From Raillietiella orientalis (taxonomy: Eukaryota): a DNA stretch of 64,000 nt. This document shows, piece after piece, positions 676-34,480 of the stretch (the first letter of the stretch is position 1; each line of letters begins with the position of its first letter). The notes under the pieces are model-generated. The model was not told where the DNA came from. It did not search any database and saw only the letters and a list, made by a program, of their open reading frames with translations. The stretch is from NCBI GenBank assembly GCA_036172245.1, contig JAYWIR010000031.1, positions 2,170,001 to 2,234,000 on the forward strand, written 5' to 3'. A program made the position numbers and the translations under genes.

Positions 676-876
676 TCACTTTTTTTTCTCTTTTATTGAT
701 TTTTTGGGGGTCTCCACTTTGGGCAGGGCCGGGGAGGCGCTCTTCAGGTTCTCGTACATGTCCTCGATCTGCGGTTTGAAGTATTTCGCGATCTGTGACC
801 TCTTGTATCTGCAGTTCGGCGTCAAGAGATCGTTGTGGATGGAGAAGGGGTCCGGATGCAGGTGTATGTCCGCCAC
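676..876 (-). CDS. ACSL: ACSL terminal coding exon 12 (VADIHLHPDPFSIHNDLLTP...KEKKK*)
   Basis: Acceptor ccatctttcag; matches ACSL1 LHPELFSIDNGLLTP; TGA at 678..676. Confidence 0.94.
   Translation of the reverse strand: MADIHLHPDPFSIHNDLLTPNCRYKRSQIAKYFKPQIEDMYENLKSASPALPKVETPKKSIKEKKK
692..697 (-). promoter_or_regulatory. Candidate polyadenylation signal AATAAA inside the last ACSL codons
   Basis: The only minus-strand AATAAA I saw at or below the gene end; a T-rich stretch follows the stop codon. It may be incidental to the S-I-K codons. Confidence 0.3.
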
Positions 877-1399
877 CTGAAAGATGGAAGCGGACCGTCA
901 TCCAGCGTCGGCACTCTCGGGAGGCTACCGCTACGCATTCTGGAAAATCTGCCGCCTTTTCGGGCTGGCCTGTCGGAAGGGACGACGCAGCGGGCGCCGG
1001 CGGCGGTATTCCCGTACGGCTTAGGAACGGGATGGGGAGAAGGGTGTGTGGTGGGGGGAGGGAAGCGAAGAAGTGGCTCCCATATCCGGTGGATCGGAAG
1101 GGTGGAGAGAAAGAGAGAGAGAGAGGAGGGGAGGGGGAAGGCTACGGAAAATGCAACCACTGGCTCGGTTCTTCCGTCGCCTTGGAAACTCTTTCCTCTT
1201 CCCCCTCCTCGTCCAAAGAGGAAGGGACAACCGCACTTCGGGGGAAGGGCCTGCGAGGAGACCCACCCGGGAAGCAGTACGCGTTCGCTACACAATGCCT
1301 CCTCAAAGATCCAGGCTCTACCCACTTCCTCTTGGGTGGGGCGGTATCCCGGGAACGCCGCGGATTCGTGCTGACCCGGAAGGTTCGGACGTCCGCGAA

Positions 1400-2700
1400 C
1401 GGCCTCTGGGAGCGGCGAAAAGGAGGAGAGCGCCGGAAGCTGCCCGGCACCCAAAGGGCTCCCGTCCTGGGAAACGGCCGGAGGCGAGGCAGATAGGAGG
1501 TTATCGGTGCTCGAAGTCCGCGCGGGATAGGTCCGGAGGTCAGGAAGGTTTTCTGCGCGCGGGATTTTCGCACTGGTCGCAGGGAATTTTCCCCCAAGGC
1601 GGTGGCGTCCCCGATCGCCCCATGGATTAGACGGTCACGATCTGCACAACGAGGGGAGGGGGGGAGCCCTTCTTGCTGCACAAGGGCGGGAGGAAGCCGC
1701 GCGGAGTTCACAGCAAAGGCTAGAACGCCACCGTCCCTCTCTTGCCTTGCACTTTGGGTTCAGCTCTCGGCAGGCGGAGAAGAGAGGCAGGGGAAGAAGG
1801 GGGGATAGAGAGAGACGCTCCCTACGTGCTCTCAGGAAGTGGCTCTCTATGGGAGAGGTGCCTAAGTCACGTGGCAGTCGCGGGAGACCCGGACAGGGAG
1901 GAGTCTGGTGGTAGCAGACGGCCGGAGGGGAATCCGAAAGGCGACTCCGAAAACCGGAGACCCGAGCGAGTCCATGGATCCGGTTGGGAACCGGAACAAC
2001 GACCAGAGGAGAGGGAAGAGTTTTCCACAAGTATGACGGCGGAGGTGACGTCAGGAAAAGATTCACTACGGTCCGGTCACATGTAGCGGCAGGGAGGCAG
2101 CGGCAGGAAGCGAAGTCGCTTCTTTTTCCCTGAGGCACACCTGGACACCCCTGTCGAATCCAGGTATGCTGGCACTCTTGAAACGGAGCCGCAAGCTGAA
2201 TTCTTTCAAACCCAGTGAAGCTGCCCAGGGGCCGTCTCCAATCCTCGCTGCCGATTTCAGGAAACAGCTCTGGTTCCCGTGGTGGGTCTCCAGGTTCTTC
2301 CGTAATCCCGTCTTCGCTTGTTTTCCGCCGCCGAGGGCACTCGATTCCTGCTCCTCCTAACGGGAGGTCTTTCAGTCCCCATCCCGAGAAGGGTGAACGC
2401 ACGGCCGGACCCCCTCCTCCCTCCTTCAGCATGGGACCGCTGAGGAAGGGAAACTGGAATTGCCCTCTTGCTAATGTTCCTTCCCTTCGCTCCCCCCCCA
2501 TCTCTTCGAAGCAGCTGGAAGTCTTCGCAGCAAACCAGCCGTTCAGCGCCATCGCTGGTCTCAATCCGGAACTCGATCTCATAACCTATTTGCCAGTAGG
2601 TCAGGTGCTGGCCAACTTTTCCAGTACAAACTCGAACTCCTGTACGTTTGTGTGGCATCCCTGTGTTCGCCGGGCCGCGACAGTGCCCGCGTCGCCCGCG
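1400..2700 (-). mobile_element. Possible decayed L1/Tx1-like post-RT region and finger
   Basis: SSGLRPAMALNGWFAAK, DLPLGGAGI (PxxxGGLG) and LIHGAI...PCDQC occur in the expected order. Confidence 0.4.
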
Positions 2701-4777
2701 AGAAGGAAGTAAACACTGAATGTAGGGTGTGTTTGGCGAACAGTGGGCAAAGAGATTTTTCGCGCACGCAGTGTTTGGCCGCGAAGAGGCCAAGATGCAA
2801 GGGCAAGCTCCGAGGGCACAGATCGTGTTGGAACAAGCAAGATCGCAGTGGAAAGACTGAGAATGGCAGGCTCCAAGGAAGAGTTTCGAGGAAGAGCTTT
2901 CTCTTTTTCCTTTTTTTTCTAAAAGGCATTTCCGGGCCCGGTGGGGGAAGTTCGCTAAACCCAAAAAGTCACGTCCCAAACCGGTCTGCTCTCATTCAGG
3001 AGGCACGAGACACGGGGTTGTTCTGCCGGAACGAGCGAGCAGTACCAGCAGCACCCGCTGTCCCGAAGGGATGCTCGCGCCGTCGCTCTCTCCCCGAGTC
3101 GCCTCGCTGATGGAGGAGAGAGATGGGGTGGATGGAAGCAAAACGCTCTTTGGTCGATGCGAATTTCCACTGTTGAGAGCGTTTGAAGGTTCCGCTCCGA
3201 CGGGTCAAATTGCTCAACGGGGGGCTGGAGACGTTGCGGGACCCCTCTGCCTGCTTAGCGGTTTATTCGCAAACCTTTTGCATCAAAGGTTCAGGGATCC
3301 CTTCTCAAATCGTCCGGGATGCGGAGAAGAATACTCCACAGACTGGATCGATGAGGAAGGATTGCGCTCTCTTGCTGCGGTGTTCCTTTTTTTTCGCGCT
3401 CGGAATGCTTGGTTCCCATTTTCCATCCATTGAGAATCTATTCTGCCAATTTTCTAGCCTGGGGCATTTTGATCTCCTTCCGGTTGAGGGGTTCCATTTT
3501 TCTCCGAAGCCAGAGGTCTTCGCTGCAGTGGATCCTCCTAGCAACCCATCCTTACCTAATGGAGGGCATGGATCCTTGTGAAGACAGTTCGCAGCCCAAT
3601 AGCATCCGTTCGAAGCTTTCCTCAGGTAAAGGTTACCTCAAGTTAAGAAAAACGCCGCCTACATTTGGTTTGATGTGGTGGCTGGAGCTTCAGCAGGCCT
3701 CTGCACCTCTGAGATTACTTTTCTGCACATTTCTTTCCTCCCGCGGAAGCACAAAAAAAGAAAGAAAAGAAAAAAAAAAATCGGCAGCAATTTTCTCCCG
3801 GAGAAAGAAGATTCCAAAGCTCATCGATTGAACGCAAAGTTTACCGACGCCTTCCGATGCGGACGAGAGAGGACTGGCTGGAGCATCCGGTCGTCGCTCC
3901 AATTCAGCGAAAGAACTGCAGCAAGAAAGAAAAAAAAGAAAAAAGAGCTCATTCGAAAGAGAGCTTTCTCTTCTTCTCCGGTATGTTTTCGTGAGTCCGA
4001 AAACCATCAACCGGTATCATCTGGTTGATTACTGATGCTGATGCTCGGTTAGCTCGGTCAGCTTGGATGGAGAGCCGAATCTTCTCTCCCATGTTCTGCA
4101 GAAACTAATTTCCTCTTGACGACGCAAAAAACAAGCTGCTGCTTCAGCGGAGATCCTCTACTGCTGCCCGGTTTGCTTCTGTGGAAAACGAGACGGCAGG
4201 AGGAGGCGTAGCTGATGAAGCTGCTGATAAGCTTGCGGTTCTCAGAACGGGCACACTGAAGAGCACGTCATTGGGCCTCATCCACTTGCCCGTTCGGAAA
4301 AAGAAAGTGGTCACCTTACCGTCTCCTTTGTGACGCTGGCCACTTCCCCACAAGGGTGAGTGTTCAAGCATCCTTCTGGAGGTCGATCGTACTAGCGCAA
4401 GACTCAAGATTCCAGGGTGTTTTCATCACCTCAAAGGAAGCGAGATTTTCTCTAAGAGCATTCCGGGGTTCCTTTCTTCTTCCGGCCAGATGCGGAAGAC
4501 ATCTTGGCTGCCGACGTCTTCCATGAGTTCATCAGGGGGTCTCCTCCAGCACTGAGAATCTTCTGACGGAAGTGAGATCCTGTTTTTTTTTCCTTGTGGA
4601 TGCTTTGGATCGCACGGATCCTGGAGGACTTTGGGGGCTGAAACTTGTCGGAAGCAGGGATACTGGCCACAAACGTACAGTAGCGTCATCTTAAGAAGTC
4701 TTTTACCATCTTCTCCGCCTGTCTGTGATCTTCGACCTGACAAGGACAGGTCGGGATGACAGACAGGAAAAAAAACT

Positions 4778-5215
4778 TCTCCGGGGAAAAACTGCAAGAA
4801 AACCGCTCCTTGTTTGTGCTTCCTCGTAAGAGAACCCCGAAGGGATGCTTCCAAATATTCCCTGCAGGGCCGCTCCCCAAAAGGAGACAGCGCTCTTCTT
4901 GCACCCTGGAGAGGCATCAACCGGCTCCATTTTCCCGACAGGAGGGGAAACTCCGAAGGGAACCGGTGCTCCTTGATTCCTGGAGGGTCCCCGGAGGGTG
5001 GTCGACTTTCAGTCCTGGTCAGTCAGCGGGGGCATCTGGCTTCCACCAGTGCCTCACCGTAGCCCGTGGGTCAACCAGCGTCATCCTTTGTGTTTGTGTG
5101 GGGTGGGGGGAGGGACTCGAAAACTTATTTCTCGGCGTCGACCTTTCCCCGGGAGGGATTTGAACCCGCGACGCTTGGTGCCACGCGCGCGGAGATTGTG
5201 GCTGTCAACGCGGCC
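4778..5215 (-). mobile_element. tRNA-derived SINE, copy 1 (3'-truncated)
   Basis: B-box-like GGTTCAAATCC (5166..5156); body colinear with the copies at 30.8-31.4 kb and 46.3-46.8 kb. Confidence 0.75.
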
Positions 5216-6456
5216 TGACCTGCCCTCCTGACGAGGGTGTGTGATTCCTGAAGGTTCTTCCATTATGAAAAGTGGTCCATTCGATGACTGGAGTGCATTT
5301 CTACGGGATGCCCACACGCCATTTTCTACCCGATGTGCTCCGTCAGTTTATTCGGAGTTCTCCCGATCCCCTCATCTCTTCGTGGATCGCGAGATACCAG
5401 AGATCCTACGACCATTAATGCTCAGTTCGCAAAGACTCCTCCCTCGGAAGAGAAATGGGGAAGCTGATTTTCTTCGTTTGGTCTTCTCCTTTAGCTGTGT
5501 CTCTTCTGGCGCGGCTGCTAAGCAACCGTAGGGGGCACGTCCTCTTCTCCTGGGAGGATCAGATCCAGCAATGCTATGACGAAAACAATCACAATGTCCA
5601 TCCTATTTCCACGAAGTTCAGGGAGGAAGTCATCCGATTTTTTCACCAACAATCAGAAAAGAGCAGGAAGAGGAAACACGAAGTGGGAATGGGTTGGGCG
5701 TGTAAAAGAGTCAGCCACTCTGCTGAAGGCAGCCAAAGAAGAGATACGGGAACTTCTGCTGCTCGAGCCTTTTTGCTTGGATGCAAGGATCACTGGGCAG
5801 AGGGTAAGGGGGACTCCGTAAAGCGGTACCGACTGCGTCACGTGCCTGTTTCACTCTTTCGGATTTCTCTAAAGATGCAGTCAGATGAATGGGATGTTCT
5901 CGGAGGGCGGCGGAAAGATCTTCCCGTTCCGGACGAGACGAAGCGGCAATGAGCACACACACGAAAATCCGCTGCTTGGGTGAAATCACGAGGTCGCTGC
6001 ACGTCTACTCCGGTTGACCGGGAACTCTTCGTATGCCGAGAGCATCAATTCAGGAGAACGGAAAGTAGGATCCAGTCATTCAGCCGCTCTGCAGCTTTCA
6101 CCGAGGTTCTCTTTGGTTCGTAGTTGCGGGAAGCTACACCCGCGCAGGTTCGAGCACTGGGAAGCACCAGGAACTAAGGTCAGTGTTGAGCATAAGACAA
6201 GCAGAGGAAGGCGACTGACAGTCAACAGTCGAGATTCCATCCAACGAACGCAAGTAGAAATATGCTGTTCTCTAAATACGTGAGCGGCGGGTTCGGCGCA
6301 AGAGGCAGATAAGAGAAACCAACTTCAGAGGCACGATGTTCATGGATGAAGGCATCCGTTCGCGATGGAGTGCCTTTTTTCTCGACTTAACAACCAGCCA
6401 TTCTCGATATCCAGTGCATCCGTGACGAGGAAGGAGGAACAAGGCGGAACACTCAC

Positions 6457-6630
6457 CTGCTCGTAAGAATGCAATCCAGCCTGCGTACCTAGAGTGTGCA
6501 TATGGGCGAGAAGTGCATCTTTGATTTTAGAATCGTAACACAGCTGCGTGTAGGTTCCTTCTAGACCGTTTTGCTCAGCCCACATCAGCAGAAACTTCGA
6601 GTCGGGAACCACAATGCCTACAACGGATGC
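6457..6630 (-). CDS. ACSL: ACSL coding exon 11 (ASVVGIVVPD...AGLHSYEQ)
   Basis: Follows a 50-nt intron (6631..6680); donor CAG|GTGAGT; IVVPD and GL.S.EQ motifs. Confidence 0.95.
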
Positions 6631-6680
6631 CTGTTTCGGTACCCAAGGAATGGAATTTCCGGAGCTACTGTTTTCTTTAC

Positions 6681-6824
6681 CTGTATGCTGTCCCCGTGGA
6701 CGAAACACTGGTGGATGAATCTGCTCCTGCCGTATATTTGTTCCACCTTCTCTGGTTCCACGTATTCCCCGTGGCACAACTTGAATATGGGTTTCTTGCG
6801 ATCGACAATACGTAAAACTCCATT
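6681..6824 (-). CDS. ACSL: ACSL coding exon 10 (NGVLRIVDRKKPIFKLCHGEYVEPEKVEQIY...CFVHGDSIQ)
   Basis: Acceptor after a long T tract (ttttaaatgtag), donor CAG|GTAAAG; hinge motif IVDRKK.IFKL..GEY..PEK.E. Confidence 0.96.
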
Positions 6825-9159
6825 CTACATTTAAAAGAAAAAAAAAAAGAAAAAGAAAAAGCGAGAGATGTAATTGCCCAGCACGCAGTTACCCGAGAAG
6901 AAAGCAGCAGGTATCACAAGAAAAGGTCTCATGCAGGTGTGACCGCGGATCTTGCGCGAATCTTTTCCACCCTTGTCTTGGTCGTGCCTAGTAACGGAAT
7001 TCTCTATTCCCTCAACTCGCAACCGTTTTCAACTTTCGACTCGTGGACATGTGCGTTGGGACATGACCGTCCCCCTTTCGCGCGCAAACACGGTGTGTTC
7101 GAATTTTTCAACCTCAATGATAGTTGCCCCCTTAATGATCTACTGTCAAACTAAGGCATTCTGCCGCCGAGAGCGGAACACTTTGGCAAAAGGCAAAACA
7201 CATCTATCGACAACCGCTCTGCTACTTCGCATTCTATTTTTTTTTTTTTTTTTTGTTATTCGTTTCCGAGGAACTGAAGAAGCAAACAGCAATGAGCAAC
7301 TGGAAAAGAAGTTTCAGGAGATGAAATCTCATACGTTCGTTGCAACTCGTGGACAGATTCCACAGCTTTCGAAAGGCTCCAGGAGCTGAAGCTGGTGCAC
7401 CTTCAACTCCTCCGTAACATTCTTCCCCGGCTACAGCCTCTCAAGAGTGCTGTTGTTGTCACTTATTATCGGAGATTTTTAACCGGGCAGTGGAGTAAAG
7501 AGGCAGCAGCTCTTTGATTCGAGAGGCATCAAAGCTCTGCTCACTTTGCAGAGCCCTCCTCACGAGCACCACAGCCAATCGCTACAAGACCAGGGGATCA
7601 GTGACTTTCCGGTCCAGTGTGACAGTTTTTCGTTGTTTTCATTTCTTTTTGACTGGAAAAAAAAAAAAAAAAAAAATGGCTACAGAGAAGGAGTGCACGT
7701 TGCGTCTTTGTCTCTGGATGTGTTTTTTCTTGAAAAGTTCTTGAAGAGTTTTGCTTGGTACTTTGTGGGTTCGACATCATGCAGGAGATAACAACAAGCA
7801 TGTAAACCAGAGGAAGGAATCATTGAAGGAATCTTCGTTCCAGAGATCCTGCTCTGGAACGAAGCGGGCTCCACTCTTCGCAGCAAGGAGGATCAGCAAA
7901 AACTCCAAGTTAAGAATCATTTTGAGGGGAGAAAGGGCAGAAGGAAGAAATGAAAAAAAAAAAAAAAAAAATCAAAGGTTTCAAGTGATTGAAGATCCGT
8001 TCTGAGTCTCACTTGCCAAAGAAGGCATAGCAACAGCATCTAGAAGATCGTAGGATGTGAAAAGCTTGTCGAAGAACAAACGAAGATAGGAGGGCAAAGG
8101 CGAAACGCGGTAGAAAGGCGAAAGTCGACATCCAGCGAGTCTTGCAGAAGCGGAGAGGACTGCAGACTTTAAAAGGGCGTGTGAAAAGTCGTGACGTATG
8201 TAAGAAGGCATCCACGAGGCTTTGTCGTGGAAGTGCGAACTTTCGGACAGGCAGGAGAGGCAGCTCCACAGAAGTTCGAACTGATCCACAGAGCCTGTGT
8301 GCTTTCGGATCCAATCGACCAGTAAGTACCCAGAGGTGTCATGGGAACCACAGAAAATTAGAACCTCGAATCAGCAGGTCACCTCTTGAAAGGATAACCA
8401 GGAAAACGAACCCGGCAATCAGCTCTCTGCGGCGCTCCCTTTGCTTCGTGCAGAGGACTTTACAAATCGATCGTTTCGCCTAGCTGGGATTTCCGATAGG
8501 AGATCCCGTAAGATGCTGAATGGGCACTCTAAAATCGTTCCTTATCCATAATCGCTTGTTCTTCCTCCCTATCAGAATTTCTTCAGCAGTTTGGACTCCT
8601 TTCATCTTCCCAGAATATCTCTGATGAGCCCAAGATGTGAAGGCAGCGGTGCGCCGCTCACGTCGGGAGGCGAGGGGAGGGGGGGGCTTTCTTGATGTGT
8701 TTCGCTTGCAGCTTCTTCCAGGCCCCGAGCCACACCACACAGAATCTCCGGGAGAGTAAGGCTAAGCCATAATTGCCTCTCAGCTTTTTTGCTGAGCTGT
8801 AGCATCATTGCCGTCGCTCTCCTCGCTCCTGAGCTAGCAGATTCTGCAGAAGAAGCCGAGGGAAATGACAGAGTGCCAAGATAAATACACCGCCACAAGT
8901 TCAAGTAGAAGAACAAAAGAGAGTGAGAAAGAGGAACGTGGAGCGGAAATAGAAGGAAAGTGGAGGAGGGATGTTTGAACTTTTCGTCGATGGGAACACT
9001 GAGGACTTCGTTCAGCTCTTCTTCCCTTTCATCCGAATCTCACTGCAGGCCCTTTACTTTCGGTACTTGTAAACACTATTCTATGATGCCGAATTTCATT
9101 CGTGCGAGAATGGAGACGCTTTTGCTAGCAAAGAGTGCAAAAGTGTAGCCTCAGGGCAC

Positions 9160-9620
9160 TTGGACGATGACTTCCCTCATCACGGTGGCACAGTGCATCC
9201 CGCAAGAGGGGCGAAGGTTGGATGCGTGGAAGAGGTCGCTAGACGTTGCACCTCGCTTGCAGCGCGGGCTGCCTGGGAAGCATCGAACCCGGACCTGCTC
9301 GTGGCTCCTCCCAGGATCTGGCGAGTGATCCCATCAGGAACTCGAGGAACGGCCGGTGAAAGCAAGGGACACGCCTGAGGGAGCTCCCGATTTCGGCATT
9401 CCCAGCGTCCGAGGGGCCACACAGGCGCCAGAGCGGGCGCCTATGTGGTCCATTTCGACAGGCGCAGGGATCTTCCGGTATCGGAGCAGGATCGAAACGG
9501 GCGGAGTGGGAAGGCGGTGTCGCAGCTGCGGCGGCACGGGAACGCGCGCTCGCTTGTCTTGAAGGAACGGTAGGCAGCCAGAAGAGTTATCGAGGAGTTC
9601 ACGCAGCTGGACCGACCGTT
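9160..9620 (+). mobile_element. Possible decayed LINE zinc-finger fragment
   Basis: GRRCRSCGGTGTRARL resembles CxxCGxxETxxHL; followed by (GT)n and (GGGA)n simple sequence. Confidence 0.3.
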
Positions 9621-12600
9621 CGATCAGGAACGCGAGGGGATGATAACAAACAAGTGCTCGACGTAAGCGTGTGTGTGTGGAGGGGGAGGGGGGAGGGAAG
9701 GAAAGGGAGGAGGGAGGGAGAGGGACATAGAGTGAGGGAGACAACGCCTCGGCTTCTCAGCTTTGTTGGCACCGCAAGTTTTGATCGCTTCTTTCACCGG
9801 AAAAACGGGACAGCCCTCTGAAGGTGGAGTACAGAGTTCCCGAAGAACCATCAAGAGCTTGCCGCGCATGAAAGAACGAACAGGATAGTCCTCGTGGGTT
9901 CCCGGAGGACCTTCCAATTTCCTTCCATCTTCACTTCTCATCCTTCGCCTTCCTCGTGGAGCTCGATTGGGAAGTTCCGGAGGCGCAAGAAGAGTTCTCT
10001 CGTGTGGCCCAATCGAAGAGGGGAGGGTGTTCGGCGGATGCGTTTGGTTCGAGATTGCTCAGGGAGATGGATGGAACACGGGAGGAGGGGGATGAAACCA
10101 CACCTTCCTCCCCTCCTTCCTGCTCTCGACCTTGGAAGTGGGCTGGGGATTCCCGGGACGTGCGCTCGGAGCGGGACTTTCCCGGTTGAGGGAGTTCCTC
10201 TGCACTCCCACATGCGATGGGGGAGCCGCCCTGTCTGGATCGCCACCTTCCCGGGCGCGCACCCGGCCTGTGGGAGCAGGAAGGTCTCCTCTCTCCCCCA
10301 CACAAGAGCCCGTGGCTTGTGGGCCTCTTCTTCTTCTCAGGCAGGACACCCTTTTCCCTCTGGGCAGGTCGGAAGGTCAAGAGCAGGGGTGCGCGCTCGT
10401 GAGCTGCCACGCGCCTCCACCAGGGAACGAATGGCAGCTTCTCATCGTCCGTGATGCCATCCGGCATTACCCAAGATCTTCCCGACGCCCGCCTCCTTGC
10501 CGACGGAAGCTCGCTTCCTTGGAGGATACGAACGGGTCCAAGGAGTCCTTTGTCCTTTTTTGCTCGCCTTCCCCCCAAAGCTCGGAAGTTTCTCTAGGGA
10601 GGTGCATGTGTGCGACTTCCTGATTCCTCGAGGTCACGTCTGGAACTTCGCTTCGCTCTCGAATCTCCGTTCCTTCGGGATCGCCTCACCAGCCCATTCG
10701 CAGATCCGCCGCCCTTTGCGGGTGAACTTTCGCAGCTGACGCGTTGGGGAAGTCAAACGACTTTGGTGCTTCGCGCCGGTGACCACCTCTGCGGTTCCCT
10801 CCTTTCCCTTCTTCTCCCCCGATGGATGGCGAGTGGGTCTCACGAACCCTCCTTTTGGCGTTCCTGTAAACCTTCGGCTCAGTGCCCCTTCAGGCGGCCG
10901 CGTAAACTCCGTGCACATCCTCTCTTCGTTGTTCCTGTTTTTTTTTTTCTTCCTTTCAGTGGCATGACCTCGCCGCTTGCGATCCACGCACTTGCTGCCT
11001 TGCGATATGCGCAGCCGCTTGCAAAGACCAAGGGACCAGCTCGAAGGAGAAGTGGGTGGGAGTTGGTGGGCGTGGGAGGTGCGGGTCTCGTGCTGTGTGT
11101 GTGAAGGTGCACGTGGAGTTGGCACGCATGCGAAATTCACGCGATGCTTCAGCTTCGACGTAACCCCATCCAGTGCTGCGCATTGTGGCTGCAAGCAAGC
11201 TTCCAAGATCTATGTTGGGGAGCCCTAATGCAGCGCGAGCGGTCATCTGCCAGCTGCAGACAGCATCCTTGCCTTCTGCTCGCGATAGCATGCTCGGGTT
11301 CTTATCACCCCTACGTTAGAGATGCATCTTCATGAAACTTGCTTGAAAGATACTCTTTAAGAGCAGCTGAGTATTTCTCAGGAAAGCCATCCTGTCTCTC
11401 CATTGCAGTGCTCTGATCATCTTCTCATATCGCTCTATTCCTCCCCATCGTACTGCTGTGTTCATCTCCATCGTGTTTCTTTATCTCATTTTTCGCTTTC
11501 ATCCTTTTCCCCTCGATAACGCTGCTTATACGGTGATTCAGCGGCAGATGCTTTCTCGCAGCATCCGAGCACAGATGCATATGCGTCGCTGAGCGAGCGC
11601 CGCGGATCTGAGCGCAGGATTTCTGCAGGCTTTCCTTTTCCATGGCTGAGCTCAGAGCGTCGATGAATTCCCGAGCACCCGGAGTCAGGTTGCCCTGCGC
11701 CGGACGACCGTGTGCGCCTCCTCCCTTCCCGCGAACCTGCGTGGCGCCTTGTCCTCCCGCCCTCCGTCCGTCCCCGAACCTCAGTGGTGGGCGCGGGTCA
11801 GACTTTTTTCTGAAGCAGGAGAGCGTATCTTTTTTGCGCCGAGCTCCCTGCTTCCGGTGCTGCTTCCGGCAAATGGTGAATGTGGCGTAGCAGCAGTGGT
11901 CACGTGGTCTCCCTCTTCTCCGCGAGGAGAAGAGAGGGATCCATCGCGTTCAGCCATCTCGTTTGCTTCCCCACCTCTGACTCGGTGGTCCGGTACACAC
12001 ACCCCGATCGTCCGAGGGGAGGCGGCTCCCGCTCCGCCTCTTCCGATGCAGAGGAAGGTCGAAGACGGAGGAGTGGAGACCGAACGGAAGAGGAAGAAGA
12101 GGCTGTCTGCCCTTTGCTGAGCGGACCTCCGGCATCGAGAAGCAAACCAGAAGCAAACCTCCGACATCTCTCCGTGCAGAGGGAAGAGATGAATCCGCAC
12201 ATCCCTTTCCTCCACGTGGCGAGGCCGCTCCGGGTCACTTCCTTCTTTCCCTGACGGGGACACACAATCACGTAGCGCAGACGGGAGAAAAGAGGGGTCT
12301 GGGCGGGATCTCGCGAGGGGTCTGGGTCGTTTCCCTTTTCCCCTTCGGCGTGCTGCGCGCGTCCTCTGCGGCTTTCCTCCGCGGCCATAGCTGCCAGGGA
12401 GCTCTCGCGGAGCCGCCTCGCGAACGTCTCTTCGCTGTGAGCGGAGCAGCTGCGAGGCGCATGGGTGCTGCCAGACGAGGAGGCGGCCACCTGCCGGTTG
12501 GTCCGTGAGGCGCATCCGTGGCTCTTTCTGAGCTGCCTCCTCCCTCCCCCCTGCCCCTCGCATTTCATTTTCTGGTCTCTCCGCCTTCATCTTTCTCCCT

Positions 12601-13056
12601 CCAAAGACGGACGCCACGCGATACTCATCGTCGTACCTGCTGGCTTGGCAACGCGCTTGGATTCCCGTAGGCTGGCGGCGGCGGTGCGAGGGGAGAAGAG
12701 AGTGGCAGAAGGAGGGACGGGAGCGAAGGAAAAGGGTGGGAAGGGGCGGGTGGGAGGAGGAGGAAGGGGGAAACGTGCTCACCTTCTCCTTGTTCAAATT
12801 TCTCGGGAGGAAGGGCTCCTGAGACAACTTCCTCTGGGTTCGCCCGGCAACCGGGGAACAGAGAATGCTTTCCCTCCCGACGCAGCGTGCAGTGGCGGAT
12901 CCGGAGGGAAGCTGCGGGATCAGAGGACCGCGAGGCGGAAGAGGAAAGGTGGAAGGCTGACTCCTCCAGGAAGGAGGCGGAAGGCAAAGGTCCTGTGGCT
13001 ACGCACGCGGAGCGCCCGCGGTGAGAAGGGGTTGCGCGCACCCTCCTCGTGCTCAC

Positions 13057-13143
13057 CTGCATCCACTCTCCAATGTCCCCCGTGTGGAGCCACCCTTCGG
13101 AGTCCACGGAGTCCTCGATACCCTCCGCCGTCTTCAGATAACC
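13057..13143 (-). CDS. ACSL: ACSL coding exon 9 (GYLKTAEGIEDSVDSEGWLHTGDIGEWMQ)
   Basis: Follows a 74-nt intron; acceptor ctttccag, donor CAG|GTGAGC; FACS signature GWLHTGDIG. Confidence 0.96.
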
Positions 13144-13217
13144 CTGGAAAGTGTCGCGGGTTGGCCGCCGCGAGTCGCTGAGCAGCAGCAGCGCGCGGAC
13201 CGCGGAGACAGACTCAC

Positions 13218-13409
13218 CCGGAACACGACGCAGCCCTTGACGCAGATCTCCCCCTCCCCACTGGCGACGAAATAGTCCATCTCGGGGACGTCGGCCAGCT
13301 TCAGGAGGCAAGACGGGAGGGGAGGTCCCACGTGGTCGACGCTCAGATCCGTCGGTATGGTCATCGAGACCGGACCAGAGGCCTCGGTCTGGCCGTAGCT
13401 CTGCAGCAC
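13218..13409 (-). CDS. ACSL: ACSL coding exon 8 (VLQSYGQTE...HVGPPLP...GEGEICVKGCVVFR)
   Basis: Acceptor cttccag, donor CGG|GTGAGT; YGQTE and GEICVKG motifs. Confidence 0.96.
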
Positions 13410-13565
13410 CTGGAAGTTTGTCGTTTTTCAGGCAACAACGCGGACGGGAGGAGCCACAGAACCCCGAGGAGGGGAAGGAGGGGTGGGGGAAGCGAATCAG
13501 AGCTGGCTGAAGACTTTCACCCTTCCTTCCTCTCCTCTCTCTATTCCCACTCCTGTCCTCCTCAC

Positions 13566-13716
13566 CAAGCATCCGAAGGCCCTGCGCAGGAAGCTCACTA
13601 CGCTCTCAGAAATGGGCGCCGACCCAACTACGATCAGCCTCAGGCGAGAGCCCATCCTGCGACGGAGATTCCTGAAGAGGATCCTGTCGAGGGTGGACGA
13701 CAGGCACGACGGGTTT
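13566..13716 (-). CDS. ACSL: ACSL coding exon 7 (RNPSCLSSTLDRILF...LRLIVVGSAPIS...FLRRAFGCL)
   Basis: Acceptor tttgtccacag, donor TTG|GTGAGG; matches ACSL1 RVRLMVTGAAPVS; phase 2 to 0. Confidence 0.95.
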
Positions 13717-14904
13717 CTGTGGACAAAGCAGACAAGAAATAAGTGTGAAGAGCCTTTCAGAGATGATGGCGGGGAGGCTGCAAGAGAGAAAAAAAGAAAG
13801 AAGGAGAAAGAGGAGGAAAGGGAAAGGAAGAAGAGAAGGAGGAGGAGGAATGGAGGAAGAGGAGAAGGAGAAAGGGAAGAGAGAGCGATCTCTGACAACA
13901 ACCGCCCCTCTCTTTCATTTTTAGGCGGCATCCCCAGCTGCCACTGCAGTGGACTCCACCCTCATGCGGTCGCGCTGCAGTGGCGGGCGAGAGCAGCCAG
14001 CTATCCCCCTACTCGAAGAGGCGGGCGCTATCGCCCACGAACCTCCAAGGATCTGCTGCGTATCCGAAAGGCCCTCCCTTACTCCTCCCTCCCTTACTAC
14101 AGAATTTCGCGCATCCTTCCGCTTTTCTCTTCAGCTGCTGAACCGCCCCACCTTCCAGCAGATCCTCTGGATGCTGTTTTCCCTCTCCTCCAGATCAGGG
14201 GTGAAGCAAAGGTGGGAGCTGGGGGAATTCCCTCATACTGTGAGGTTCCGTCGCGCTCCCACGTTCCTTCGGCAAGGCAGCATTCAGAGGATCCGGGAAT
14301 GGTAAATGCCACATGGCAACGACCGGGGACGCTGGGAAAGTCAGGAGTCACGGAGAAGCATGGGCTCGTTCCAGGAGCAATTCCGAAAGCGGGAGGGGGG
14401 CCGAAGTGCAGACATGGGTGAAGAAGCTAGAAGAGGAGAAGGACAACCCCAGTCGGCAAGGCAAAGCCGGTCGAAGCCGAGAGATCGAAGGGCGCGTGTG
14501 AATGTCCTCTCCCAGTCCTCCCCGCGTTCAGCAGAGAATCCAGGGCTCTCGGCGGCCCGGAACGGCTCTCCCCATCGCGCATCACGCTGGATGGAGCGTC
14601 CTTCCGGATTCCCCTCCTGCTCTCCAGGATAAGTCCCTTTGGATCCTGGGTGCTGGAACGGGAGGGAAAAGGAAAGAGTGGGTTCCCTCTTCGGGTTGGG
14701 ATGCCTCGTCCTGTACAGGATGATGATCAACGGTCGGAAGATGAAAAGGACTCTGGGCTGAGAATTGGACCGGAGTGCCTCCGGGTCTGGACGCCACAGG
14801 CAGGGATCGTATCCTTCTGTGTGGCGTCCTTGCCTTCTGACCGGCTCGGGAAAGCCCGCAGCTCCCTCCAGCTCTCTCATATGCATGCGACGACCCCTCC
14901 TCAC

Positions 14905-15125
14905 CTTATTCGGGTCTCCCTTGCCCTGGACGTCGTCAGTGCCTTGTACCTCATCCTGTCGAAACGGGACCGGGACACCTCCTTTCGGAACTCGTCGTGC
15001 AGGCGGTTGAGCACCTTGGGGACGGCGGGAAGCACGGTGGGACGGAACAGCGCCAGGTCCTCCGGGAACCTCTTCATGCTGCCGGAGAAGAAGGCCACGG
15101 AGCCTCCCACCATAAACATGCACAC
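14905..15125 (-). CDS. ACSL: ACSL coding exon 6 (VCMFMVGGSVAFFSG...RPTVLPAVPKVLNRLHD...)
   Basis: Acceptor tgtcctccag, donor AAG|GTGAGG; matches ACSL1 QPTVFPVVPRLLNRMFD; phase 0 to 2. Confidence 0.95.
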
Positions 15126-18100
15126 CTGGAGGACAGTTCGAGAAGCTCCGTCAGACGCGCTCTGCGGGATGGAGGACGCGCGCGCAGGGGAAAAGGACAT
15201 CCCGGGTCAGCGGTCCATCCCTCCGAGGCACGAGGAGGGATGACGCGGCCGCTAGAAGGACTGACGGACTGGCCTGCGCAGAGGGCTTCCCATCTGCGCA
15301 CCGTCTCCTCTGCCCGCTCCGGATTCCCCTTGTGCCGAGGCAAGTAGACAGGGACTCCTGAACCCGTGCTCCTGCCCCCTCGTGCCCTGCTAGGAATTCT
15401 CCTCGCAGTTGGGAATCTCCCTCTTTCGAGCTGCTGCTGCTGAGGCCGTTACGAAGAGGGCTTGAAGGGACGTGCTTGCGACTCCTTTCTCCAGGATCCC
15501 TCACTCCGGATGGAGTTGGGCGCGATCCTCACCGTGTCCTCGGCCGGACCCCGAGCGGAAGCGAGCCGTCGTGCACCAGAGGAAAAGGCTCTGGCGTTCC
15601 CCGCTGCCATCCCTCCCGGAGCTGGACGCCTTGTTCCCGGCATCCGCGGACCGTGGCAGTGATCCATTGCCACGCTCTCCGACAGGAAGTCTCGGCGGAA
15701 CTTTCCCGCGGGTCCAAGCGATAAACAAACGAATGCTCCATTCTTTGGGAGGTCAGCTGGCTAAGCACAATCTGACTCGCGGGGGCAGACAGTTGGGGAG
15801 TCACGCGCTATCGTCAAGGCGTTCTTTGAGCTGGGAAGATCTTGCCGGTTTGCTCTCTTGAGACAGCAGTGCGGGGTCCCGTGTAAAAAAAAAATTCCGT
15901 CTTGAGAATGCACGGACGTGTCATGTTTTCTTCATGAATGATGAGGGCATCCTTGCTTTTCCCTTTTCCTCGTCCTTGAGAGGCAGCCTAGGCTGCTGTT
16001 CGTCTCCCTTGCAGCGCTCCCAGAAGCCTCCACGTGACGCGAAAGCACATCTACCCTGATGAGCCAACTTGCGGCTCAGAGTCGTGGCGGCGGACTGCGT
16101 CGCAACCACAGCTGGGAAGGCGGTGTCTTACCTCGTAAACCCGAGTGAGCTCCTTGGGAAAGTATTCCTTGTTGGGCTTGTTCTCCTCCTCTTGTCCTCA
16201 CGCTGTTCGAGGAGTCGAGAAAAGCGGTCATGCGGAGCGCGCGTGTCAGTCACGCAAGACGAGAGTGCTCATTCGGAATCCAGTGCGCTCCTTTTGCTTC
16301 CCTCTCCGGACGACTCTCTTCGCACCGCAGAGTCTGCTGAAGTTGTTTCCGAGTTCATGTGCGATCCACTCTCTGACAATCTACATGGAGGGTGGAGTGG
16401 ACTTCACGCCACCTTCCGAAGGAAGGGCGAGGGTACAGCAAGCCCCGCGAGCTAGAAGAGCTTTGCTTCCTTCAAGGAGGTTAGCTCGTTCCCAGCTTCC
16501 CCATGTGCCGCAGAATCCCGGTTATGTGGCAGGAGGTTCCCTTGCCTTCCCTTCGCAGAGGGGAGCGACGCCACGCACCTCACTCCTTTCCGATTCGATC
16601 GAAGATCGCTGTTTCCAATGCCAATGACCGGCTCCCTGAGGAAACGGCAGTCTTCATCACGTACGAAAGTTTGCTTCAGGCTGCTTGCCGGTCAAGCATC
16701 ATTCCCAGTTAAAGATACTTCGTTCTCTTCAGCTCTTTTTCTGGAAAGAAGACTCCTCTACGCCTCGTTCGTGGAACGGCACTTGTTAATAATTTCATCT
16801 CCATCACTGCTTTGCACCGAAAGTGGAAGATGCTGCTCTCGGATCAGCACGGCTCAAAAACAAGTGCTACCGGAAATCTAAAACTTCTTCTTTCTCCCGT
16901 ATATCTTTCACCATCTCTTCCTTTTGGCTCGAATGTTCCACTTGGTTTCCTGGATGAGTATTCTTTGTCGCTCTTCCTTGCATATCCCCTCCCTTTGCAT
17001 TATCGCTGCATTTCGCCGTCCCCCCGTGGAAGATACTCTCAGGCACCCGACGCGGCGAGCACTGTATCAACCTCTACTAGGAGTCTTCGAACAATTGTCA
17101 ACATTCCGTTCACTTGTCTTTCATAACACCAGGGCTGCCATAACATGGGAAACCATCTAGTTACAGCGGCCTCACCTCCTCGGCAGTGATTCTTCCTCAA
17201 AAAGGCACCCCTGCCGACATTTTTCGACAAATACCAACTGCAGTCTCGGGCAAGGATCAGCTAGACGAATCAGAAAGACGGGTCCAAGAGTTGTTCCCGT
17301 TTGCTTTTCAAGTCCGAGTCCTTGTGAGAAGTTTTTTCTACGCTTCTGAAAAGCGTGCTGCTGTCAGTTCTTTCAGTCTCCGGCAAAGCAGCTTTTCATC
17401 TAAGAAAGAACAGGGGTGGCAAAATCTGAATAAGGGTTCTCTGGGAAGTATTCTTTTCCGTCTGCTGACTGCGCTTGGGACTTTCGAGTAATCCTGTGAT
17501 CGGTCTTCGCAAAACATTGCCATAGAAGATATTTCGGCTGCATCAGGAAAAAAGTCACTGGAAGTACGCCGCGTAAATGGAGCACTGAGTGAATGCACAA
17601 TGCAAAGAACGGCATGCTGTCTCGCCAGTCGGTATCGATCCGTTGGTCACTTGGACCACACAGAAGGATGGATCTTGAAGCATGATTTTTGCCTAGCAAC
17701 ACTGTCCACTCACGGAACAGCAGCTCGAGGAGCAGTCCCTCCACTCACCTTCTCTGGATGCTGACGGTATCACAAGATTTCGAAACTAAAGCTCAATTAA
17801 ACGAACTAAGGATGTTTCCTTTGCAGAAGGATGCAGCGGATGAAAATAGGGCACTTCGAACAAACGAATCGAGGGCCTGACGTGTATCCTACTGGATCAA
17901 AGTTGTGAAAATTCTCGGTCGTGTACGAACTAGAGGAGACTGCTCGTTTATGACTCTCTCATTTCGTCTTGTTCACAAAGGTGGACGCTTTTTGTTTCCG
18001 AGGTCTTAGCTTTGAAAGGGAGTTTTTCTTCTTTTTGCTTTCCTTCTTGGATACTCATCAACGAAACGTAGGAGACGCGCCTTAGGGGACATGAGGTCAA

Positions 18101-18477
18101 TCTTAACTTTTTTATTAGTGCTGCAATGGACTTTGAATGGAATAACTTCGCATTCGCAATTCTATCGACTACATGGAAGATGAATCTCGTGTCTTGTTTC
18201 TTTTTTTTACTGTGTCGGGATTTTGGATATTTGATACAATTTCGTCTCTCGGCATTCCAGAAAAGATGGATCGAGAGCCCAGTTCCCGAAGAGCGTTTCG
18301 AGTTTTTTCTTCTACGTCCACATGTCCCCCACGGACTCGGGGTTTGCACCGAAGCATTCAGATTGGGAGTTTGTTTACCACCGATCAGGGAGCAGACACC
18401 TGTGAGCTCCGAAGGTTTGAGACTCGCACACCGAGCAAACGCACATGCACGCAAAGAAGGAAGGAAAAAATGTTTAC

Positions 18478-18678
18478 CTGTGCAATCCTCTCCATTATGA
18501 AAGCAAGAGGCAGATAAGAAATCGCAACGTCATTCTTTTGTGGACCCATTTTAGAAAGATGCAACAAAACCGAACTAGCAGAAGCCACGACATTGGCATG
18601 CGTCAGCAGGACTCCTTTGGCCATCCCCATGGTCCCAGAGGTGTAGCACACTAAAGCGACGTCGTCACGTCCAGCAGG
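18478..18678 (-). CDS. ACSL: ACSL coding exon 5, AMP-binding P-loop (CYTSGTMGMAKGVLLTH...YLPLAFIMER)
   Basis: Acceptor tttccttgcag, donor CAG|GTAAAC; ANL A3 and A4 motifs; phase 0 to 0. Confidence 0.96.
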
Positions 18679-19965
18679 CTGCAAGGAAATTGGGCGTTCA
18701 TGAGTTCTCGCTCCCAGCAAAGGATCGTGTGAGAGACATCGGAGGAATCCACCTGAGGAAAATGGATCTTGGGTTCATCTGAACCCTTTCACTGTCCGAA
18801 GACCCGCTCAGATGTTTAACATGGAAACATGTCCTAAGCGAAGCAGCGAAGGTGGGGTCGATTTTTGTGGTGCATGCAAAATCAAGTGTTGATCTCCTTC
18901 CTCGACTGATTCGCCAAATGTGCGTCGAAAAACCACACCAACCAGCAGACAGACCAAGGAACACCACCAAGTCATTGCCATGAAAGTATTTTCCGTTGTT
19001 TGGTGTCTTCAGGGAAAGGCCCCTGTTTATGATCTTCAGTTTCCATTTGTTTCCTGATCGGCTGCGTGATTTGCTCACGCTAACCACTAGCCTTCAACAA
19101 GACCGGGAACATCGCCCGGTTTGCTTCACGACGGAGAGGGAACAGCCGCTCGCGACCGAGGGCTCTCAGGTATTTGCTTGGGAATGCTGGGCAAATTCGT
19201 GTGGCGAAGTTTCACTCCCCTCGAAAGAAAGGCTAGGAACTCTCAAGATGCCTAGCATCCAGAAAAAAGAATTCATCCTTCTCACAAGAAAGTAGGGACA
19301 ACAGTGCTCCAGAAATGTTCTCGCTTGAAGAAGAGGAACGCCAAACAAAACTTGAGGAAAATTGCAGAGGAGATGGCGTTTTGCAGCCTCTAAAGAGAGG
19401 CAGAGGATCTGTCGTTTAAAGGATGAGGATGATGATCCCGAGGGATTGAAGGCATTTTGTCATTCAACGGGCCTCAGGTTCTACATCCAAAAGACAATAG
19501 CATCAGCGTGTTCCATTCCGCGTTGGTCCTTTCTAAGGCTGAGACAATCGCTCATTGTGAATCGCAACTGGAATTCTTCGCGTTCGTTCCCATCGGTTTC
19601 AGGGGTCAGGAAGCCGCAAAGTGAAGTCTGAGACTCGAATGCCTCAGCTCTGCTCGGAACAAATGAAATCGGAAAAATCTACTTTTGCTCCTGGACAGCA
19701 GTGAAAGAAGAATCTTCAAGCCAGACTCGGAGACAGTAGCTGGTGAGCACTTGAAAAGTGATCTTCACAGCAAGCAAATGATCAAGACTCCAGCGTAAGT
19801 AACGATGGACACTCCTTGAGGCTGTGAGCCAGAAGTGCTCGTGTCTGTCTTGTACTCAGAGAATGGAACGGCCTAACGGAACCAAGCATTGCCTTTGCTT
19901 CGCACCTTCGTACCCTCAGCTCCAAAATGTTTTCCCGAATCACGCAAAGGCATTCCAGGACTTAC

Positions 19966-20165
19966 CTTCACTTTCACGGGTTGACCAGATCCCATTATTT
20001 CTATGTCTGCCATGAGATACGTTTCTATGTGAGCGTGCTGGCATCGTTCTATTATTTTCGGGCTCAGTGGAGTGAAAGAAATGAGTAGGCGAAGGTTTTT
20101 GGCAGGGTGGCTGAGAACAATTGAGGCTCTGCGGTCATCGTCAACGATGATGGCAGTCATCAAAG
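19966..20165 (-). CDS. ACSL: ACSL coding exon 4 (TLMTAIIVDD...IEIMGSGQPVKVK)
   Basis: Acceptor ttttttgttag, donor AAG|GTAAGT; phase 1 to 0; length and hydrophobic pattern fit the ACSL segment before the P-loop. Confidence 0.92.
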
Positions 20166-23100
20166 CTAACAAAAAACGAAAAAAAAAAAACAAAAACAAA
20201 TTCCCATCAATGCATCAGTTTTGTGTGAGACGTTCCATCCAGTCTTTCGAAGCGATGGAAATTCTTAATGCACAGGATTATCTGTGGAGAGCTGATGTAC
20301 AGTTACCAAAAGATATGGGACTGCCGAAAAACCGTGTAATATTGACGTACATTACGGAGGATCGTCGTGCAAAATGCAAACCAAAAAGCGAAAACGCTAC
20401 AATCAGTAGATGCTTTCAGAGGACGGTTTCATGTGGAGAGAAATCCGGGTTTCATAACCGGTGAGAGACTTCCATTTTTCGACAACGAAAGCAGCTACAA
20501 GAAGGAAGCGGAGAAGTCACCTTGGAAACTGAGGAGCTATCCATCCGGGTGGGGATGAGGCGAGCCGAGGAAGAGACCGCAGATCCCGACGCGCTCCGCC
20601 TGACTTCAAAGAGAAGATCGCGGAAGAGGGCAGGAAAAATTCCAGCGCGTCCGAATGCTGGGCATCGTGGGGTGGCTTCGGCGCTTTGTTCTTCCGCTCG
20701 GTTCAGCGTCGGGGAGCGGTGGAATCGCCCCATTCGTTCCAAGCTCGTTCGTTGCCCGACTTCCAGTAACGAACGGAATCTTCTTCCGGAGGTGCCATCG
20801 CGGAGGAGGCGCGCCAAGTGGGGTTCGAGGGGCGCGCCGAAATGACGACGCGGCGGTCCCTGAAGTTGCGACGAAAGCAAAGAACGTGGACGCGCCCTCA
20901 ACATGCGGAAAGCAACCACGGTGCTTTGCCTTTTAGGGTATTAGAGCCAGTCAGTGAGTTTCGGAAAACAGCATCGAGCTTTGGATAAGAGATGCGGATT
21001 CAAATTCTCAGGATCGAAATGCAGCGCGCTTGTCCCGGTCCACTTGTCCCGGAAGGCCCATTCCAGGTCTCCTTTCGAGGGGGGTTTCGAGTTTGCTTGT
21101 GCCGCTGTACGCAGTGCAAGAGTTCCCCTGAGGACTGCCGTGCTCCTTTCGAGGCATTTTTTTTTTTTTTTGTTTCAAATTCTGACACGAGGCAAAAAGA
21201 GTCACAGGAGACTGACGCCGGAGGTTATTTGCATGGAGGGGGATCGGAGACGGAGCGTTCGAGAACGTGATGTCTCTCGTCATCCTGATGCACGTGATTG
21301 ACCCCGCTCGTCGCTGGGCCGAACCGACAAAGCACACCAGGAAAACCAATTAAAAGCTGATGCGACCCCTCATGACGGCCGAGGCAATCGCCCTCACCTC
21401 CTGAAATAGAGGGCCACTCCACATGGGATTCATCCTTCGTGCACTCCTATCCCTAAGGAGTCAGCGACAAAAAGAAGCATTATTATGAGGCACAATGAAT
21501 CATTGCAAATGCTTCTGCTGACGTTTTTCCCACCTGCACCTCGGAAATCCTCAAGTAGAGCCTCTTTCCACGAGTGACTCAATTTTTTTTTTACGAAGCC
21601 GTAGGTGCGACGAGGCACACGTCGGGAGTAGGTCCCAGGAGTGACATCGCCCAATGATGTGTTTAACGGTTTACGAGCTTGCTGATCTGTCCCCTGCCCA
21701 CAAATTTTCGCATACGGAGGCAAAGAACGAACCCCTAGTGGGTTGGCTCACACGGAGTACCTCAGTGTAGCCGGGTTTCTGACCGAAGATGCACATCTTC
21801 GCGAGGTGAACGCACGTCCTACGTTCTCAAAGATGGAGGCGAATGGATTTTCAGTGAGAAGCGTCCGTTTCCATCTCTGCCAAAAAATTTAGAGGTACGA
21901 TACAAATACGGTTGTTTTCGATGTGAGTACTCAGAACACAAGGAGGAAACAAACATCGGTCAGGGTGTGTGTTTAGGTCCGTATATGATCAAATAAAAAA
22001 TAATACCACTCGAAGCTTCACTGTTCTGCGTATGTCTCGCGGATAGACTGCGAGACATTTTTCTTAAAGGGTGACTCCTCAACTAAAATACTAAACGCCC
22101 TCTCAACGCACACTTCCTGGGCTGCCCTGAGAGAAGTGGCGACTTGTAGCTCCCCTCTGTTAATAATAAAACAGAACGAAATAAAAAGACATGGAATGTC
22201 AAAGAGAGCATAGCAGCAGGGAGAAAAGCCATAGCAAAGGGACAAACAGCTTTTCGTTTCCTGATGGTAGCCTCCCTTTGGAAGCTTAATCCCGAAGAAC
22301 CGAACAAGTTGTGCACTTGTGAATCTCCGTGAATAATCTTTCGTCGGGTGTGCCCTAGAAACTAAAAATAGAGCAAAGCAATGTCCAGTTGATTAAAGTG
22401 ATCAAGCTAAGATTCGTGAGGGAATTCGTCACACTGTCGGAAAAGGAGCATGCTTGACTGGTTGGGCAACTTCTGGGTAGCAGAAGTGAAATCTACGTGC
22501 GCTCTTCGAACAAAGCAAACAAAAAACCGGAATGCTTAGGTGACAGGAATAACTAGAGGGAGACTGAGGATCCAGCAAGGAATGCCATTAGCATATCTTT
22601 AGCATAACCATCGACTACCTTCTTTATCTAAAAGCGATTTACATAATGAACGCGCTGACACTTTTTAGCAAACGCTTTAAGACATCTTCAAGTGACGCTA
22701 TTCATGCCCCTCTGTAGATGTCACTGAATGACACAAAGAAAAGGTTTCCGACCGGTTGCCGCGAGGAGGAATTCAGCCAAAGTAGACAAAAGGGACGGAA
22801 ATGCTTGCGTTTCCTTTTGTTACAACTGTTCATCCGAATGAATCGCAAGTAGTTATTAAGTGAGCTGCATCCGAAGACCTCGGTCCAGAGACGGAAGGTT
22901 TCTTTTGAAAGGAATGAATTTCAATCTAGGATTCCTCTAGAAGAAAATCGTCCACGAGACAGCTCAAAGCTTGCATCTTGAAGAGTTTCTCAGAGAAAGA
23001 ATCGGGGACGACGGAAAATGGGATCCATTCCTAAATTCTTGACTGCCAGCTACGAATACCTGGAAGGAAGGAATTCCAGGAAGAAGAATTCTGTTCTTTC

Positions 23101-25184: not shown

Positions 25185-25207
25185 AGAGAGAGAGAGAGAG
25201 AGAGAGA
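25185..25207 (+). repeat. (AG)n microsatellite
   Basis: About 11 perfect units. Confidence 0.9.
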
Positions 25208-25439
25208 AAATGGTCGCTCGAAAGACCTGAATGGTAGCCTAAATGGTCAAGTAATCCAAGGGAAAGCTTTCGCTTGTCTCTTGACCTTTACTTGTTGTTT
25301 AAAATCTGCTTCATGCCTCCTCTACCACGAGATGCAACAGGATCACTTGGGTTACAGCGCAGTACGGCACAATAAGCTCCTCCCGATAGAATCGCTTGGC
25401 GAAGGTGACTCCTATTCTTCCACCGCAATTTCCACCGGT

Positions 25440-25930
25440 TCTTGCTTGCTCTCCCTCAAGTGGCAGCACGTGGCGCTGCTCATCTTGCGTCGGGACTCCT
25501 CGCGCAAAGAGCATCGGCATCCCCCAACTTCCCGGAATCGTGCCAGGTGAATGGAAGGAAGTGGAAACGCCCTTGCGCCTGCTCGTGGACCGTGGAGCCT
25601 TCAGGGTGGCTGGAGGTAGCATCTCCTCCTCCCTCCTTTCTCTCCGGTGACGTCCCCAGGAAGCTGTGCCGAGAAGCTGTGCTTTGCGAGTCGAGCACAG
25701 AGGACTCTTTCTCGCCTGCCTACCGGGTGCCGGATTCCAGTCCCGCGCCGGAAGGATGGTGGCTACCCTCCCACACGTGGGAGGTGCCTCAGCCCAAGAT
25801 CACTCGGGAGATCGTATGCTTCGCTCTCCTTCCCGAGACGAAGAGGCGACGAAGTGGCTCCATTTGCAACAGAGAACGGAGCAGGAAGATTGTCTCTGCA
25901 TCTCACGCACACGTCCGCAAAAGATGAGGA
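25440..25930 (+). mobile_element. Possible LINE AP-endonuclease fragment; related piece at ~10100..10450 (-)
   Basis: SFLSGDVP (GDFN-like) and PSHTWEVPQPKITREIVCF (YTW..SRID-like), with weak DNA similarity to the 10.2-kb segment. Confidence 0.35.
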
Positions 25931-34300: not shown

Positions 34301-34480
34301 GGATGAGGGATGTTTTAGCTCTTTCTTCCGGAATCACAAGTGAATTTAAGAGGATTGCACGCGCCTCCCACCCTAAATGCACGCGCAAGCGTTCATTTCA
34401 CGATCTCGTCTTTATTCCAAGGCTTCCCATTCACAAAGCTGTAAGGACTTTCGCCCCTGAGGATAACTTGGGATCCCTAC

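Follow-up and report, generated by a model that had tools for sequence, protein, structure and literature searches.

Does an ACSL gene in which two of the most conserved catalytic residues have been replaced still encode an acyl-CoA ligase? The question is raised by a gene on the minus strand of a stretch of 64,000 nucleotides from Raillietiella orientalis (assembly GCA_036172245.1, contig JAYWIR010000031.1, positions 2,170,001 to 2,234,000; hereafter the window, in whose numbering coordinates are given unless a contig is named). In the encoded protein the lysine of motif A10 and the histidine of motif A4 are replaced (K634R and H281F), in an intact frame. Pseudoenzymes are well known as a class, and we lean towards the view that this gene encodes one: a retained nucleotide-binding protein, while the ACSL3/4 genes of the same genome would carry out the ligase reaction.

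Gene structure and subfamily

When spliced from the window, the gene consists of 12 coding exons (38880..676, minus strand; 2034 nt, 677 codons), with no internal stop and with GT-AG borders in all introns. A first-pass annotation of the window had correctly located the motifs and codons discussed here, in a stop-free frame with canonical splice sites, and had counted 12 exons within 676..18678; that count holds for the whole gene, whereas the interval itself contains eight exons (456 codons plus the stop, with AG/GT at each junction), the other four lying upstream at 20165-19966, 27177-26911, 34604-34481 and 38880-38809. An ACSL1/5/6 profile detects 11 of the 12 exons at E<=4e-5 and exon 1 only at E 11, and a Pfam AMP-binding scan of nine exons gave three matches above the cut-off, two weaker matches and four exons without a match; judged by these sequence comparisons, the exons are not chance matches. 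They are, in the order of the gene:

38809..38880, minus strand: exon 1 (provisional), with a QSxxxK stretch at its end as in relatives, a GTAAGT donor and phase 0
34481..34604, minus strand: exon 2, profile E 4e-5
26911..27177, minus strand: exon 3, A1/A2 region, with E121N and YDTLG>HERFS (residues 140-144)
19966..20165, minus strand: exon 4, profile E 3e-5
18478..18678, minus strand: exon 5, with the P-loop YTSGTMGMAKG (18645..18613) and the gate motif YLPLAF (within YLPLAFIME); codons of T238M at 18630..18628, P241A at 18621..18619 and H281F at 18501..18499
14905..15125, minus strand: exon 6, profile match
13566..13716, minus strand: exon 7, with the adenine-binding motif GSAP intact
13218..13409, minus strand: exon 8, with A5 SYGQTE at 13400..13383 (G416S; Y, G, T and the Mg-binding E421 intact) and A6 GE
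13057..13143, minus strand: exon 9, with A7 WLHTGDIG at 13092..13069, D499 intact
6681..6824, minus strand: exon 10, with the A8 hinge DRKK..FKL..GEY at 6803..6762 (R514, K520, G524 and E525 intact)
6457..6630, minus strand: exon 11, preceded by a 50-nt intron, profile match
676..876, minus strand: exon 12, with A10 LTPNCRYKR, K634R (AGA, 810..808) and the stop TGA

The least certain of the 12 is exon 1, which was recognized by its motif and its good donor. Its first in-frame ATG is at 38880 and the reading frame is open from 38979; a further exon upstream is possible and the true start uncertain. From the first ATG, the N-terminal transmembrane helix is absent: the peak 19-residue hydropathy is 0.17 (0.76 in the upstream extension), against 0.9-1.8 by the same measure in three canonical proteins. 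At the other end, exon 12 encodes a basic tail that runs about 20 residues past the usual end of ACSL proteins and may be read-through of a former 3' untranslated region; AATAAA occurs at 697-692 (minus strand), within the last codons of this tail and before the stop. No relevant solved structure was found for exon 12 alone. The ACSL1/5/6 profile revealed no alternative canonical ACSL exons within the introns in the window, and a segment at 27615..27379 resembling the exon-4 region was rejected, being out of order and without a profile match.

The protein has the ANL fold, its AMP-binding domain carrying motifs A3-A10 in order, and by sequence it belongs to the ACSL1/5/6 subfamily. BLAST scores were 624-642 bits to ACSL1/5/6 proteins versus 201 to the genome's own ACSL3/4 gene, and an arthropod ACSL tree, as suggested in the first-pass annotation, groups it with ACSL1/5/6 against ACSL3/4 (SH-aLRT 89) on a long branch. 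The trees place it among arthropods, outside the sampled Pancrustacea, a placement that is unsure because of the long branch. The arthropod ACSL1/5/6 proteins of a centipede (P0012), Folsomia (P0062) and Microplitis (P0067), of the type of Drosophila CG3961, the named ACSL1 orthologue (PMC2798955), have in common with it the Pfam AMP-binding domain, the HVGPP/DVPEM segment, the gate-motif position, the A5-A8 residues and 46-47% identity. The window protein differs from them in H281F, K634R, T238M, P241A and YDTLG>HERFS, in its long branch, in the absence of a clear N-terminal anchor and in 32 altered columns among the 160 of >=95% conservation (reference median 0). The gate motif of ACSL1/5/6 is D-x4-(F/Y)-LPLAH-x2-E (PMC1543647); here it reads D-x4-Y-LPLAF-x2-E, departing from that form at the His.

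No close orthologue was found among the proteins searched: exon 8 against the longer proteins gave seven matches in 19 candidates (best 55%), and profile searches gave nothing above 47%, which is also the top identity to arthropod ACSL1/5/6 (the median among references is 61%). A metagenome scan with exon 5 returned relatives only, at up to 68% over short stretches.

Replacements in the catalytic core

During ANL adenylation, the A4 His and the A10 Lys contact the carboxylate and the alpha-phosphate. The register of both was taken from the A domain of carboxylic acid reductase (CAR; PDB 5MSC, 6OZ1 and 5MSS), which is nearer to ACSL1/5/6 in sequence than any other solved structure and which differs from the window protein in being a bacterial multidomain reductase that retains His and Lys. 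In this alignment the first Lys of TPTxKxKR falls on the CAR A10 lysine, as the first-pass annotation had assumed, and the second lysine is variable (109/149), with Leu at its position in CAR. By alignment, then, residue 634 is the ANL A10 lysine position, and it is Arg in the window protein. The comparison comprised 268 ACSL1/5/6-type proteins (119 of 124 proteins, with 550-800 aa kept, plus 149 new 50%-cluster representatives). The A10 column is cleanly aligned in 256 of the 268 and contains Lys in 255, Ala in one and Arg in none, three apparent Arg cases being misaligned tails; the A4 column, clean in 261, contains His in 260 and Phe in none. Both residues are retained in all 117 ACSL3/4 proteins. 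In a bird ACSL1, the A10 lysine is 23 residues from the end, which we take to correspond to human K675, assuming a human length of 698. K675 has been described as an ATP-binding site (PMC9992462).

In ANL enzymes, the A10 lysine is invariant in 374 of 374 (PMC6122825). Replacement of either residue has been costly: K492A and H207A each lowered the activity of 4-chlorobenzoate ligase (CBL) 500-fold (PMC6122825), K487A cost FadD13 96% of its activity (PMC2793005), K572A abolished the activity of FATP2 (bioRxiv 10.64898/2026.07.06.736331), and H237A that of Neurospora crassa CAR (NcCAR; PMC5826065). The exchange seen here, Lys to Arg, left luciferase K529R with about 0.2% activity (37 versus 15,998 relative light units; PMC3774628); no such measurement at A10 was found in the literature for an ACSL. 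By analogy with these enzymes, activity has probably been lost in the window protein.

The rest of the site is largely in place. Intact are T234, S235, G236, T237, K242, GSAP, E421, G465, D499, R514, K520, G524 and E525, and thus the Mg, adenine, ribose and hinge residues; among the five ANL-invariant residues (as listed in PMC6122825), E421 (A5), G465 (A6), D499 (A7) and R514 (A8) are kept and only the A10 Lys is replaced. This agrees with the first-pass annotation, which had noted WLHTGDIG and DRKK..FKL..GEY as retained and had proposed a conserved fold with lost or altered chemistry.

Its suggestion that five substitutions act together was not sustained. T238M and P241A are absent from the 119 ACSL1/5/6 proteins (Met 0 and Ala 2 in the 149 new representatives), but a scan of bacterial genomes, with a pattern that required Ala or Ser at the P241 position, yielded at least 120 loci with TSGTMGx[A/S]KG, of which at least 116 are ACSL-like; because the pattern forced Ala/Ser, coupling of T>M with P>A is not shown. 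These FadD15/ACSL-like proteins (L136-L255, L094, L095 and L129) have the P-loop in common with the window gene, seven loci letter for letter (TSGTMGMAKG in 4/116 bacterial loci matched and in three metagenome loci, all with the His kept). Unlike the window protein, they keep the A4 His (113/116 of those matched) and mostly the A10 Lys, which was found by column in 67 of 73 long open reading frames (ORFs), with Arg in none; two of the other six are misaligned, and four have Ser/Asp at A10 with a Lys two residues earlier. The likeness of the loops is presumably convergent. L094, L095 and L129 each comprise a tandem pair, one copy with TSGTMGx[A/S]KG and the other with Thr retained at that position. 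Although P168A kills CBL (PMC6122825), changes of the A3 Ser, Thr, Pro and Lys had little effect in NcCAR, where P189A was harmless (PMC5826065). T238M and P241A thus appear to be no evidence of inactivity. Position 416 is variable (Ala in 5/119 and 14/149, Ser in 1/149). The first-pass annotation would be refuted if such residues were common in active ACSLs. The P-loop variant is widespread among bacterial ACSL-like proteins and site 416 is variable, so that the case for altered chemistry rests on H281F and K634R. No covariation of E121N with the bacterial P-loop variant was found (5/73), and Q523H does not count for much as damage, since three of the genome's ACSL3/4 genes likewise have His after K-L-x.

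Selection and the ACSL complement of the genome

Neutral decay was rejected by simulation, which suggests that purifying selection has kept the frame intact and the fold maintained; the 12 exons contain no stop, frameshift or broken splice site. Neutral mutation to the observed level, simulated for base substitutions, would be expected to give 5-6 stops (0 seen), with stop-free frames in 1/400 runs at divergence 0.10, and the chance that all 44 splice bases of the 22 splice sites were spared was about 1%. The 32 changes at invariant columns have a mean BLOSUM score of +0.44, versus -0.75 +/- 0.3 under simulated neutral mutation; in ten settings of 400 runs each, the maximum exceeded the observed score in just one setting.

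The assembly searched comprises 210 Mb in 491 contigs, with the window on G000:C31. A canonical paralogue, for which the first-pass annotation had proposed a check, was not detected: no canonical ACSL1/5/6 was found when the assembly, whose completeness is not established, was queried with three canonical sequences, with the exons of the window gene and with three DNA patterns. The window gene is the sole intron-bearing ACSL1/5/6 gene found. The assembly contains six genes of the ACSL3/4 type, whose introns are short and whose catalytic cores are intact; this expanded set could stand in for ACSL1/5/6 activity. It also contains four intronless, stop-free ORFs of about 720-760 residues that are ACSL1-type by score:

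G000:C60:301021-302908 and 322760-324691: two ACSL3/4-type genes
G000:C1:2513542-2541924: three ACSL3/4-type genes
G000:C1:9943450-9945293: one ACSL3/4-type gene
G000:C2 (L006), G000:C25 (L008 and L004/L011, in tandem) and G000:C43 (L009): intronless ACSL1-type ORFs

The four intronless paralogues, which the first-pass annotation had overlooked, as it had the apparent lack of any canonical ACSL1/5/6, have introns at 0/11 junctions and are probably retroposed. They have hydrophobic N-termini and an erased P-loop, and one was predicted as an ANL fold (pLDDT 84.5, from an alignment of canonical relatives), CAR being its closest match. They seem to be clearer pseudoenzymes than the window gene. 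The five ACSL1-type genes are joined in an LG+G4 tree (96/96) and not in a mixture-model tree with an ACSL3/4 outgroup; rare residues common to them (38/280) are no more frequent than in control proteins. An exon-like sequence with QGYGQTE at C1:10477801 (L256) was discarded as not ACSL, having no profile match and standing alone, with no further exon match in the 10 kb to each side.

In divergence the ACSL3/4 genes resemble the window gene (the C60 gene is about 45% identical to named relatives, the window gene 47% at best), and they alter 8-28% of their own family's invariant columns, the higher values being inflated by projection. One relative has an ACSL3/4 protein, P0274, that is 80% identical. 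In a set of 19 core residues, chosen after the changes were seen, 4/19 are changed in the window gene versus 2/114 in the six ACSL3/4 genes (Fisher p=0.004), where the changes are Ser>Cys and Thr>Ser only. Since these diverged genes keep their cores, rapid evolution is not a sufficient explanation of the core changes, two of the four of which may be harmless.

Retained pseudoenzyme or working ligase

The pseudoenzyme reading would explain these observations as follows. Purifying selection would have preserved an ACSL1/5/6-type gene whose product still folds but forms acyl-CoA barely or not at all. The protein would still bind ATP or AMP, and perhaps acyl-CoA, but the fatty-acid carboxylate would be poorly placed and barely any acyl-AMP formed; it might act as a ligand-binding or partner subunit, a role that is a guess. 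Ligase activity would come from the ACSL3/4 copies, so that catalysis could disappear throughout the ACSL1/5/6 branch. The Drosophila sperm leucyl-aminopeptidases (S-LAPs; PMC3078892) likewise form a family of paralogous metabolic enzymes that has expanded in an arthropod and lost active-site residues; a role in gonad or sperm like theirs would be a guess by analogy only, since they have another fold and it is for them that testis expression has been shown (PMC3078892). A literature search for an inactive ACSL found none, which is weak evidence given its coverage. If the protein is non-catalytic, the animal appears to have turned a whole ACSL1/5/6 branch of five genes into pseudoenzymes while relying on expanded ACSL3/4, and the five genes, graded by nature from an almost intact member to wholly degenerate ones, would help in finding what ACSLs do besides catalysis.

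Several points weigh against this reading. Lys>Arg at 634 preserves charge, Phe is a normal A4 residue in non-ribosomal peptide synthetase domains (PMC6122825), and A4 has been defined merely as aromatic (PMC8388817). The A10 loop is not wholly rigid, because the four bacterial proteins with Ser/Asp in the A10 column (L138, L148, L194 and L188, all ACSL-like) have a Lys two residues earlier, possibly a register shift of the catalytic lysine. The count of 4/19 overstates the damage, since T238M and P241A are a natural bacterial variant and the set was drawn up afterwards; the window gene keeps 15/19 core residues, versus 8-11/19 in the four intronless paralogues, which also fits residual catalysis. 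Its catalysis may still be required, since no second intron-bearing ACSL1/5/6 gene was found, and a canonical gene may be missing from the assembly.

It is possible, though doubtful, that the protein is still a working ligase, slow or shifted in substrate, with a viable P-loop and with Arg634 supplying the charge and, as the longer side chain, taking over the carboxylate contact of His281. Its four retained ANL-invariant residues, the occurrence of its exact P-loop beside a kept His, its standing as the only intron-bearing gene of its type and its much lower degeneracy than the intronless paralogues speak for this, but Arg at A10 (0/256) and Phe at A4 (0/261) are without precedent in the alignment, the residual activity of luciferase K529R is minute (PMC3774628), CAR, the nearest relative with a solved structure, requires its A4 His (PMC5826065), and the six intact ACSL3/4 genes might suffice. 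An active protein would be an exception to the most strictly conserved feature of ANL enzymes (374/374; PMC6122825). We regard as unlikely a rewired active ligase in which Arg634 does the jobs of both the A10 Lys and the A4 His, the other four genes of the branch being dead. Such a protein would form adenylates naturally without the A10 lysine and would be immune to acetylation at that site.

Very unlikely, in our view, is a changed chemistry in which adenylation from ATP is lost and the thioester side still acts, for example in acyl-CoA binding or turnover with AMP. The A8 hinge, which serves the thioester conformation, retains R514, K520, G524 and E525, and in that conformation the A10 lysine swings into solvent (PMC6122825), but a structural reason predicts an intact A8 equally, and YDTLG>HERFS and Q523H may, from their presumed position, disturb the CoA side. 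Just as improbable is a recently dead gene, in which long relaxed but real constraint was followed by a loss of function too recent for stops: the core is no better protected within the gene than other invariant columns (4/19 versus 28/141, p=1.0), a protein begun at the first ATG lacks an N-terminal membrane anchor, and the proteins searched include no close orthologue, but the substitutions are conservative and none of the 677 codons or 22 splice sites is damaged, which points to selection over most of the divergence, and special timing is needed.

Other features were noted in the window, in and around the pseudoenzyme candidate:

57395..58339, plus strand: a 314-codon open frame without a Pfam match
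4776-5055 (intron 11) and 30902-31203 (intron 2): two diverged copies of an interspersed element (76-80% in matched blocks)
28190-28390 and 29741-29941 (intron 2): a 201-nt direct repeat, 93% identical, the copies 1551 nt apart
40307..40780, plus strand, upstream of the gene: a weak zf-RVT match (E 0.008), probably the remnant of a long interspersed nuclear element

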